A stretch of DNA of 64,000 bases from Escherichia phage 92CQ, in the sequence record PV682554.1, one strand, 5' to 3'. Under the pieces are notes generated by a model that was given only the letters and a program-made list of their open reading frames with translations, was not told where the DNA came from and made no database searches. A program made the position numbers and the translations under genes. Below are positions 36,263 to 36,814 of the stretch, piece by piece; within the stretch, counting starts at the first letter, position 1; every line of letters starts with the position of its first letter.

Positions 36263-36814
36263 ATGCGGATTACTGATAAGTATGTGTTCTTCTTTTCAGC
36301 AAAAGATGAATTTAGCAACTGGTATCTATCATCTTTTATTGAACCTTTAGCACCCAAGTATAATAATTCTATTACAAGTTCTGTTGAATTTACTTGTGTG
36401 GAACAATATATGATGTGGAGAAAAGCATGTTTGTTTTATGATTACAACATTGCATCTTCTATTTTAACCGGAGATCTAAGATATACAGGAGAAAAAGAAC
36501 AGGCATATTATAAGCGACTAGGTAGATTAGTTAAAGATTACGATGAAGATACTTGGGCTTCTTTACGGGAGAAGATTGTCAAGCGTGGTTTGTATCTTAA
36601 ATACACACAAAATGAAGATCTCAAAAATAAACTTATCGCTTACGCAGATAAGGAGTTCGTAGAGGCAAGCCCTTATGATTCTATTTATGGTATCAAAATG
36701 GGGATGTGGGATCGTGACGTGGAAAATAAGGATTGTTGGAAAGGACAAAATCTTTTAGGAAAATGGCATACAGACCTTGCTGTTTATCTAAAAGCACAAT
36801 CTGATATTTCCTGA
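36263..36814 (+). CDS. NADAR-domain protein (YbiA-like), 183 aa
   Basis: Colinear similarity to E. coli YbiA: FSNW...EQYMMWRKA...RLGRLV...YTQNEDLKNKL...EFVEASPYDSIYGIKMG...GQNLLGK. Confidence 0.75.
   Translation: MRITDKYVFFFSAKDEFSNWYLSSFIEPLAPKYNNSITSSVEFTCVEQYMMWRKACLFYDYNIASSILTGDLRYTGEKEQAYYKRLGRLVKDYDEDTWASLREKIVKRGLYLKYTQNEDLKNKLIAYADKEFVEASPYDSIYGIKMGMWDRDVENKDCWKGQNLLGKWHTDLAVYLKAQSDIS

Follow-up and report, generated by a model that had tools for sequence, protein, structure and literature searches.

An orphan NADAR gene of Escherichia phage 92CQ orthologous to the characterised anti-defence protein AdfN^Bas60

We analyzed a 64,000-nucleotide (nt) stretch of Escherichia phage 92CQ (PV682554.1), here called the window, with a focus on a gene at 36263..36814 (+) that starts with ATG, ends with TGA and encodes a NADAR protein of 183 amino acids (aa). 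The gene is an orthologue of AdfN^Bas60 (bas60_0111) and of bas61_0107; AdfN^Bas60 is a named anti-defence protein that has been characterised by experiment, so the feature is already known and adds no new principle. We consider it very probable that the gene codes for an orphan ADP-ribosyl glycohydrolase of the NADAR family that reverses the DNA modification made by the toxin DarT1, which its orthologue AdfN^Bas60 neutralises. A first-pass annotation, made from the sequence alone, had delimited the same open reading frame (ORF) on the + strand, and all 6 of the motifs it quoted are present in the translation: FSNW (residues 17-20), EQYMMWRKA (47-55), RLGRLV (85-90), YTQNEDLKNKL (114-124), EFVEASPYDSIYGIKMG (131-147) and GQNLLGK (161-167).

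Family, fold and orthology

The protein matches the Pfam profile NADAR (PF08719) with E=2.5e-36 and 125.8 bits, against a gathering score of 35.1 bits, its residues 13-168 aligning to profile positions 9-154 of 163. It also scores 110.5 bits with NCBIfam TIGR02464 (cut-off 73.7 bits) and matches PHROG 1017, which carries no functional annotation, with E=4e-50. A phmmer sequence search of the PDB gave 8BAU, the NADAR of Phytophthora nicotianae with ADP-ribose, as its sole match (E=2.7e-13). The AlphaFold2 model, built from 64 homologues, has a mean predicted local distance difference test score (pLDDT) of 97.3 and a predicted TM-score (pTM) of 0.91, and it displays the alpha+beta fold of NADARs, with a helical core and small beta sheets at its flanks. 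When this model was compared to the PDB using Foldseek, both of the significant matches were NADARs, namely 8BAU (E=1.6e-9, TMq 0.77) and Escherichia coli YbiA (NMR structure 2B3W; E=5.9e-6, TMq 0.69). The first-pass annotation had named the protein a NADAR and called for a profile check; the Pfam score, the modelled fold and the active-site residues agree on that identity, and the sequence similarity supports the family assignment far beyond chance.

For the active site, we relied on Schuller et al. (2023), who name E43, K50, R79, W89, R93, E125, D130 and W133 of 8BAU as residues that contact ADP-ribose or matter for catalysis (the numbering of the deposited chain is +2 relative to that paper). 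In the HMMER alignment these map to E47, K54, R88, W98, R102, E134, D139 and Y142 of the phage protein, so that the set is kept but for the change of W133 to Tyr142. Among the 64 aligned homologues, which reach down to 35% identity, E47, K54, W98, E134 and D139 are invariant (64/64), R88 is found in 62, and position 142 is Trp or Tyr throughout. The copy in phAPEC8, a 57% identical protein, has identical active-site residues. The catalytic Glu and Lys are 7 residues apart (E47/K54), matching E36/K43 of T4 AdfN, the pair whose alanine mutants were used in published work (Johannesman et al.); the equivalent pairs are E43/K50 in 8BAU and E88/K95 in the E. coli C7 protein. On the strength of this alignment, the mapped residues from E47 to Y142 are predicted to be the catalytic and ADP-ribose-binding residues of the phage protein.

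Over the 4 kb around the NADAR gene, identity is 99.8% to Escherichia phage KKE7M and 95-99% to some 50 further Justusliebigvirus myoviruses of E. coli, including the BASEL phages EmilieFrey and JohannJBalmer; judged by this identity, the window comes from a Justusliebigvirus (Stephanstirmvirinae) E. coli myovirus. The locus tags show that PaulScherrer is Bas60 and that EmilieFrey is Bas61. Compared to bas60_0111 (QXV83846.1), the NADAR differs at 3 of 183 residues (N62S, A99T and A178T; 98.4% identical), and compared to bas61_0107 at 1 of 183 (A99T); residues 62, 99 and 178 fall in surface-type columns that rank with the most variable ones when the family is aligned. The slot of the gene is common to the window, Bas60 and Bas61, past an AAA ATPase and a variable endonuclease-like gene and ahead of a repeat region. 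We equate AdfN^Bas60 with bas60_0111 on the basis of the locus tags and of its being the sole NADAR-annotated gene in the Bas60 and Bas61 regions read. Within the genus, AdfN^Bas60 is the same gene in the same slot of a sister phage, and the two proteins agree at every active-site residue; what sets the two alleles apart is the three substitutions and an upstream neighbour of 1404 nt in Bas60 versus 990 nt here.

This orthology links the gene to published function. Johannesman et al. (bioRxiv 2024; Nat Commun 2025, PMC11825919) looked beyond the T-even phages for NADARs encoded by members of the BASEL collection and reported one NADAR common to Bas60, Bas61 and Bas62, which they named AdfN^Bas60 (NADAR^Bas60 in the preprint). 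Given that the two are essentially identical proteins in sequence, the NADAR of the window would, as AdfN^Bas60, be already CHARACTERISED (PMC11825919). In that study, AdfN^Bas60 neutralised the toxicity of DarT1 in uninfected E. coli, and its ectopic expression brought the DarTG1-sensitive phages RB69, T5 and Bas25 back to full titre on DarTG1 cells; it gave T5 no relief from DarTG2, whose target is thymidine. The suggestion in the first-pass annotation that the gene is a counter-measure against DarT-type toxins is therefore supported by the DarT1 and DarTG1 data on a 98.4%-identical protein, with no effect on DarTG2. Because the near-identical AdfN^Bas60 has been shown to defeat DarTG1, the idea is supported as right, but it is already known and not new.

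The practical value of the assignment lies in annotation, as the gene is named "hypothetical protein", "putative YbiA-like N-glycosidase", "GTP cyclohydrolase II", "COG3236" or "DUF1768" in sequence records. A label as an AdfN-type anti-DarT1 NADAR helps in predicting the host range of Stephanstirmvirinae on DarTG1-carrying E. coli, and phages of this subfamily are in use in phage collections and in therapy work.

Proposed mechanism and competing explanations

The domain, fold, active-site residues, orthology and genomic context of the gene were established here, and they frame the following model. During infection of a DarTG1 cell, DarT1 would put ADP-ribose from NAD+ onto guanine of the phage DNA, and this modification would stop phage DNA replication. 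The NADAR would hold the ADP-ribose moiety through R88, W98, R102, D139 and Y142 and cut the N-glycosidic bond between ribose and guanine using E47, K54 and E134, so that unmodified DNA would be regained and phage replication could go on. Since the target would be the modification and not the toxin, activity is expected against any guanine-directed DNA ADP-ribosyltransferase, and not against the thymine-directed DarT2. The enzymatic steps are modelled on 8BAU, the E. coli C7 NADAR and the mutants of AdfN^T4; hydrolysis of ADP-ribosylated guanine (G-ADPr) by the protein of the window is suggested by the in vivo data on AdfN^Bas60, and the gene presumably protects this phage in nature.

Recent work sorts the NADAR superfamily into four families, namely NADAR proper, the YbiA type, the T4-type phage proteins and DarG1. 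In the tree of PMC11825919, AdfN^Bas60 sits with bacterial NADARs that are neither YbiA nor DarG1, and by sequence and modelled fold the protein of the window appears closest to NADAR proper, the family of 8BAU. The members of that family (8BAU, the E. coli sigma70-linked NADAR and Streptomyces coelicolor SCO5665) are, like the protein of the window, single-domain and stand-alone; 8BAU has the same ADP-ribose-contacting residues, with the one Trp-to-Tyr change, at 28% identity. These named members are, however, cellular proteins, and activity on cytidine-linked ADP-ribose (C-ADPr) and on RNA has been shown for their family.

The first-pass annotation had called the protein YbiA-like and colinear with E. 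coli YbiA, and both descriptions hold in part. The label stands in its broad, old sense: the phage protein has Glu134 at the position of 8BAU-E125, where a Glu is the signature of a broad "YbiA family" (de Souza & Aravind, cited in Schuller et al. 2023), and it passes TIGR02464. It does not extend to the narrow YbiA clade, as 8BAU is nearer; YbiA itself scores 169.5 bits with TIGR02464 and 101.8 with NF053876, compared to 110.5 and 26 for the phage protein. Colinearity was recovered pairwise for the C-terminal half, where BLASTP aligned residues 85-166 with residues 76-146 of YbiA (sequence from NC_000913.3) at 27% identity over 82 residues (E=3e-8), whereas the N-terminal half aligns only via the common profile. 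YbiA (2B3W), a riboflavin-intermediate N-glycosidase, thus shares with the phage protein its superfamily, its fold (TM 0.69), the signature Glu and a passing TIGR02464 score, but it resides in a chromosomal rhlE-ybiA-dinG-ybiB context, in an operon that is LexA-controlled according to Cihlova et al.

Two further families were considered and rejected. AdfN^T4 (gp30.3; PF08010, Phage_30_3) is, like the NADAR of the window, an orphan phage NADAR with its Glu and Lys 7 residues apart, and it takes off guanine-linked ADP-ribose and defeats DarTG1. The two are nevertheless in separate Pfam families and without detectable pairwise similarity (BLASTP E=1.2), T4-type AdfN has a His in place of Glu134, and in uninfected cells DarT1 is neutralised by AdfN^Bas60 and not by AdfN^T4 (PMC11825919); the authors of that study infer that the T4-type and Bas60-type AdfN were acquired independently. 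We rejected membership in the T4 type on the lack of a PF08010 match (the T4-type protein scores 231 bits), on the BLASTP value and on Glu134. DarG1 (E. coli C7, G. lovleyi) has the same superfamily fold and reverses guanine ADP-ribosylation by DarT1, but differs in its catalytic Asp (D171 in E. coli C7), its N-terminal beta-beta-alpha extension and its adjacent DarT1. Using the criteria of Schuller et al. (2023), which are a DarT1 gene next door, an Asp in place of the family Glu and the N-terminal extension, membership in DarG1 was rejected as well: the gene has no DarT neighbour, position 134 is Glu and not Asp, and the extension is absent, with the NADAR domain beginning at residue 13 and the first strand of the AlphaFold2 model spanning residues 2-10. 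The gene is indeed an orphan: a homing-endonuclease-like gene lies on one side of it and non-coding DNA on the other, and its neighbours include no DarT-like gene. PADLOC returned only the candidate-system NADAR model PDC-M42C, which is uninformative.

Relatives of the protein are widespread: using tblastn, we found them in 716 of 50,697 phage records. At least 95% identity was found in 55 records (Justusliebigvirus) and 57-59% in phAPEC8-type phages, while the range of 32-45% comprises large virulent myoviruses and other phages of Salmonella, Klebsiella, Cronobacter, Staphylococcus (K/Sb-1 type), Listeria, Enterococcus, Bacillus, Xanthomonas and Pseudomonas.

Several points weigh against DarT1 reversal as the role of the gene. 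The published data on AdfN^Bas60 come from ectopic expression only, and the deletion, catalytic mutants and purified enzyme concern AdfN^T4 only (PMC11825919), so that the need for the gene in the native phage, and an enzymatic basis of the rescue, are presumed. Hydrolysis of G-ADPr in vitro is common to all NADAR families, YbiA included, yet YbiA, although active on G-ADPr in vitro, gives cells no protection from DarT1 (Cihlova et al.). Membership in the NADAR family alone would therefore not predict activity in vivo, and the choice between a YbiA and a NADAR-proper label matters for the same reason. In addition, because the family spans 716 phage records with many Gram-positive and Gram-negative hosts, DarT1 may not be the sole or main natural target of the phage NADARs. 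This leads to the alternative of a broad nucleic-acid de-ADP-ribosylase that also acts on C-ADPr and on RNA and counters several ADP-ribosyltransferases, some of them still to be discovered, for which DarT1 reversal is real but not the main job; we regard it as possible, if on the unlikely side. It draws on the proximity of the protein to NADAR proper and to the non-YbiA, non-DarG1 bacterial NADARs in the published tree, on the finding that NADAR-proper and YbiA members strip both G-ADPr and C-ADPr from DNA and RNA (DarG1s and T4 AdfN do not remove C-ADPr), and on the presence of homologues in phages of Staphylococcus, Listeria, Enterococcus, Bacillus, Klebsiella, Xanthomonas and other hosts; the authors of PMC11825919 themselves raise other DNA- or RNA-ADP-ribosylating defences. 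Against it, no cytidine-ADP-ribosylating anti-phage system is known (the published table gives an "unknown" function), and AdfN^Bas60 gives no rescue from DarTG2. Since NADAR-proper and YbiA enzymes remove C-ADPr and the phage distribution is wide, the proposal may be made that this clade, as NADAR proper and not the DarG1-derived T4 type, is a broad eraser that also takes off cytidine-linked and RNA-linked ADP-ribose and perhaps other N-ribosyl adducts, a proposal that we hold more tentatively still. If true, it could explain why hundreds of large virulent myoviruses, with Gram-positive as well as Gram-negative hosts, retain the gene, and there would have to be undiscovered base-ADP-ribosylating defences beyond DarT1.

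The remaining explanations fit the evidence less well. Iyer et al. (2022) proposed soluble ADP-ribose-derived substrates for most phage NADARs, in which case the enzyme would degrade immune signals or toxic by-products and not macromolecular adducts. The co-occurrence with Macro, SLOG, Nudix and NAD-salvage genes reported in the same study speaks for this, as do a homologue, P0100, that adjoins an NMN-adenylyltransferase-like gene in a jumbo-phage-like contig, and the SIR2, macrodomain and phosphoribosyltransferase genes carried by this phage lineage. The hypothesis is, however, based on context and older than the demonstration of NADAR activity on DNA, AdfN^Bas60 neutralises a DNA-modifying toxin in uninfected cells, and there is no NAD-salvage gene adjacent to the NADAR in the window, all of which makes this role improbable. 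A YbiA-type housekeeping N-glycosidase that destroys reactive intermediates of the riboflavin pathway is less probable again, even though the protein exceeds the cut-off of TIGR02464 (named "riboflavin biosynthesis intermediates N-glycosidase"), carries Glu134 at the signature position, and appears in databases as "putative YbiA-like N-glycosidase" or "GTP cyclohydrolase II". TIGR02464 is a domain-level model with which YbiA scores far higher, and the latter name probably comes from the fusion-derived labels COG3236 and TIGR02464. The pairwise identity to YbiA is limited to the 82 residues given above, the PDB sequence search found 8BAU and not YbiA, Foldseek placed 8BAU first, and the published tree (PMC11825919) leaves AdfN^Bas60 outside the YbiA group; moreover, the annotation of those parts of Bas61 that match the window lists no gene of the riboflavin pathway, and the near-identical AdfN^Bas60 has an anti-DarT1 phenotype. 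Equally slight is the chance of a non-enzymatic antitoxin mimic that binds DarT1, a mode reported for another phage NADAR protein. A catalytic mutant of AdfN^Bas60 is absent from the results in PMC11825919, but the full catalytic and ADP-ribose-binding set is invariant or nearly so across the 64 homologues, which indicates selection for catalysis, and DarT1-associated NADARs have an N-terminal extension that is missing from this protein.

Gene cluster and expression

Besides its sequence, the position of the NADAR gene bears on when it may be expressed. The first ~11 kb of the window hold late tail and baseplate genes on the + strand, followed by a - strand block with DNA polymerase, primase/helicase and a UvrD-type helicase (the positions of late genes and replication block were read from the Bas61 annotation), and at ~32.6 kb transcription switches to the + strand. 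There, a candidate sigma70-type promoter at 32550..32580 (+), read directly from the sequence, consists of TTGACA (32550-32555), a 16-nt spacer and an extended -10 element, TGcTAATCT; the automatic promoter scan passed over it, its -10 hexamer matching at 3/6 positions. It is followed by the ribosome-binding site GAGAGGAG and the ATG at 32611 (+) of the first gene in a tightly packed seven-gene + strand cluster with gaps of -2, 20, 14, 12, 74 and 0 nt, in which the NADAR gene is last. The cluster has the - strand replication block on one side and a long row of small + strand genes on the other. The first-pass annotation had placed the gene at the end of a "late-side operon", which is not borne out: the gene ends a + strand cluster behind the candidate sigma70-type promoter and is ~25 kb from the nearest late genes. 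This arrangement suggests early or middle expression by the host RNA polymerase, which is what an enzyme guarding replicating DNA would need.

The TAA of the upstream gene runs straight into the ATG of the NADAR gene (0-nt gap), which suggests coupled translation of the two genes. The NADAR gene also has a Shine-Dalgarno sequence of its own, AAGGAG at 36251..36256 (+), 6 nt before its ATG and read directly from the sequence. The upstream gene itself, at 35273..36262 (+), encodes 329 aa (990 nt) with matches to CapR (87.6 bits), T5orf172 (22.2 bits) and PHROG 681 ("endonuclease"). This neighbour varies among relatives, with 978 nt in Bas61, 1404 nt in Bas60 and other genes in phAPEC8, and it is probably a mobile homing-endonuclease-like element. 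The first five genes of the cluster, at 32611..35198 (+), are separated by the gaps of -2, 20, 14 and 12 nt, and there is no evidence of their acting with the NADAR. The fifth, at 34071..35198 (+), encodes an AAA+ ATPase of 375 aa (PHROG 2376; PF00004, 38.9 bits), which is named "FtsH-like protease" in BASEL records and "ATPase or Zn metalloprotease" elsewhere; only AAA+/STAND-type ATPase models match this protein, and no protease domain was detected in it.

The NADAR gene occupies the same slot in Phapecoctavirus. Across the two genera the NADAR is 57% identical and the adjacent ATPase 66%, and because these divergences are close, the NADAR seems to have long belonged to the gene set of the subfamily and to have been passed on vertically.

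Downstream region and further features

About 800 nt 3' of the NADAR stop are without any annotated or family-matched gene. The iteron-like repeats and Fur-like region that the first-pass annotation had placed next to the gene are present here, at 37013-37233 and 37253-37367, respectively. The former comprises three direct repeats of ~70-79 nt with spacings of 67 and 75 nt, the conserved cores TTATTTAAAGTTTTT and GAAAATGAAAAGTTCAA, and 20-23% G+C; these repeats look like iterons or an origin. Two "repeat_region" features are annotated in phage muut inside the matched 4-kb stretch. Fur-box-like palindromes (GATAATCATTCTCATT / AATGAGAATCATTATC), with 19-nt arms that are 95% complementary, are found at 37253-37367 and also at 47828-47846 and 48719-48737; the E. 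coli Fur consensus, with at most 3 mismatches allowed, has 4 matches in the window versus 0.08 expected by chance.

From the NADAR stop to ~37560, the sequence showed no terminator-like hairpin. A G+C-rich patch at 37400-37900, reaching 54% compared to 20-35% around it, holds several terminator-like hairpins on both strands, as well as an 88-aa ORF at 37629..37895 (-) that is homologous to bas61_0109. Scanning the downstream region and the window for Rfam families and tRNAs gave nothing credible. Beyond the repeat region lies a long run of small + strand genes with many sigma70-like promoters.

Among the distant relatives, P0100 (~43% identity; L010, 5001-5477) resides on a 455-kb jumbo-phage-like contig (ENA ERZ27249449, k141_11612), directly downstream of a CTP_transf_like (NMN-adenylyltransferase-like) gene, with GIY-YIG endonucleases, an Apyc1-like protein and a sigma factor around it; this contig is an example of the linkage between NADAR and NAD salvage noted by Iyer et al. 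MG065639.1 and 3-4 similar records ("Campylobacter phage A150" and others, with C. jejuni as host) hold a NADAR with 100% identity to that of the window. The DNA of these records matches this E. coli phage group, which probably reflects mislabelled hosts or contamination.

The window also differs from Bas61 away from the NADAR gene. At the junction 22752|22753, a block of ~15.9 kb of Bas61 (MZ501063, 47157-63035) is absent, and it is missing relative to KKE7M too. In Bas61 this block encodes a glycosyltransferase, a macrodomain protein, a phosphoribosyltransferase, a HAD protein, NrdD/NrdG and many hypothetical proteins. The junction lies at gene boundaries, has no microhomology and changes TAA to TAT, which joins two genes in frame into a 545-aa ORF at 22065..23702 (-). 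None of 56 matching phage records spans the junction (0/56), and the absence could be a natural deletion, an engineered deletion or an assembly artefact. A macrodomain partner, carried by both Bas61 and KKE7M and a possible anti-DarTG2 candidate, was looked for in the window and is absent, because the 15.9-kb block is lacking.

A second difference concerns 815 bp (31840-32654) at the divergent junction where the - strand replication block meets the + strand cluster, which are inverted compared to Bas61 (94.6% identity) and colinear with KKE7M; no inverted repeats flanking this segment were found. Its two genes form the start of the + strand cluster in Bas61 and point in the opposite direction in the window. 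Finally, a SIR2-family protein of 270 aa is encoded at 61118-61930 (-) (PF02146, 80.3 bits; "sirtuin family protein" in Bas61), which is another NAD-dependent enzyme of the same phage.

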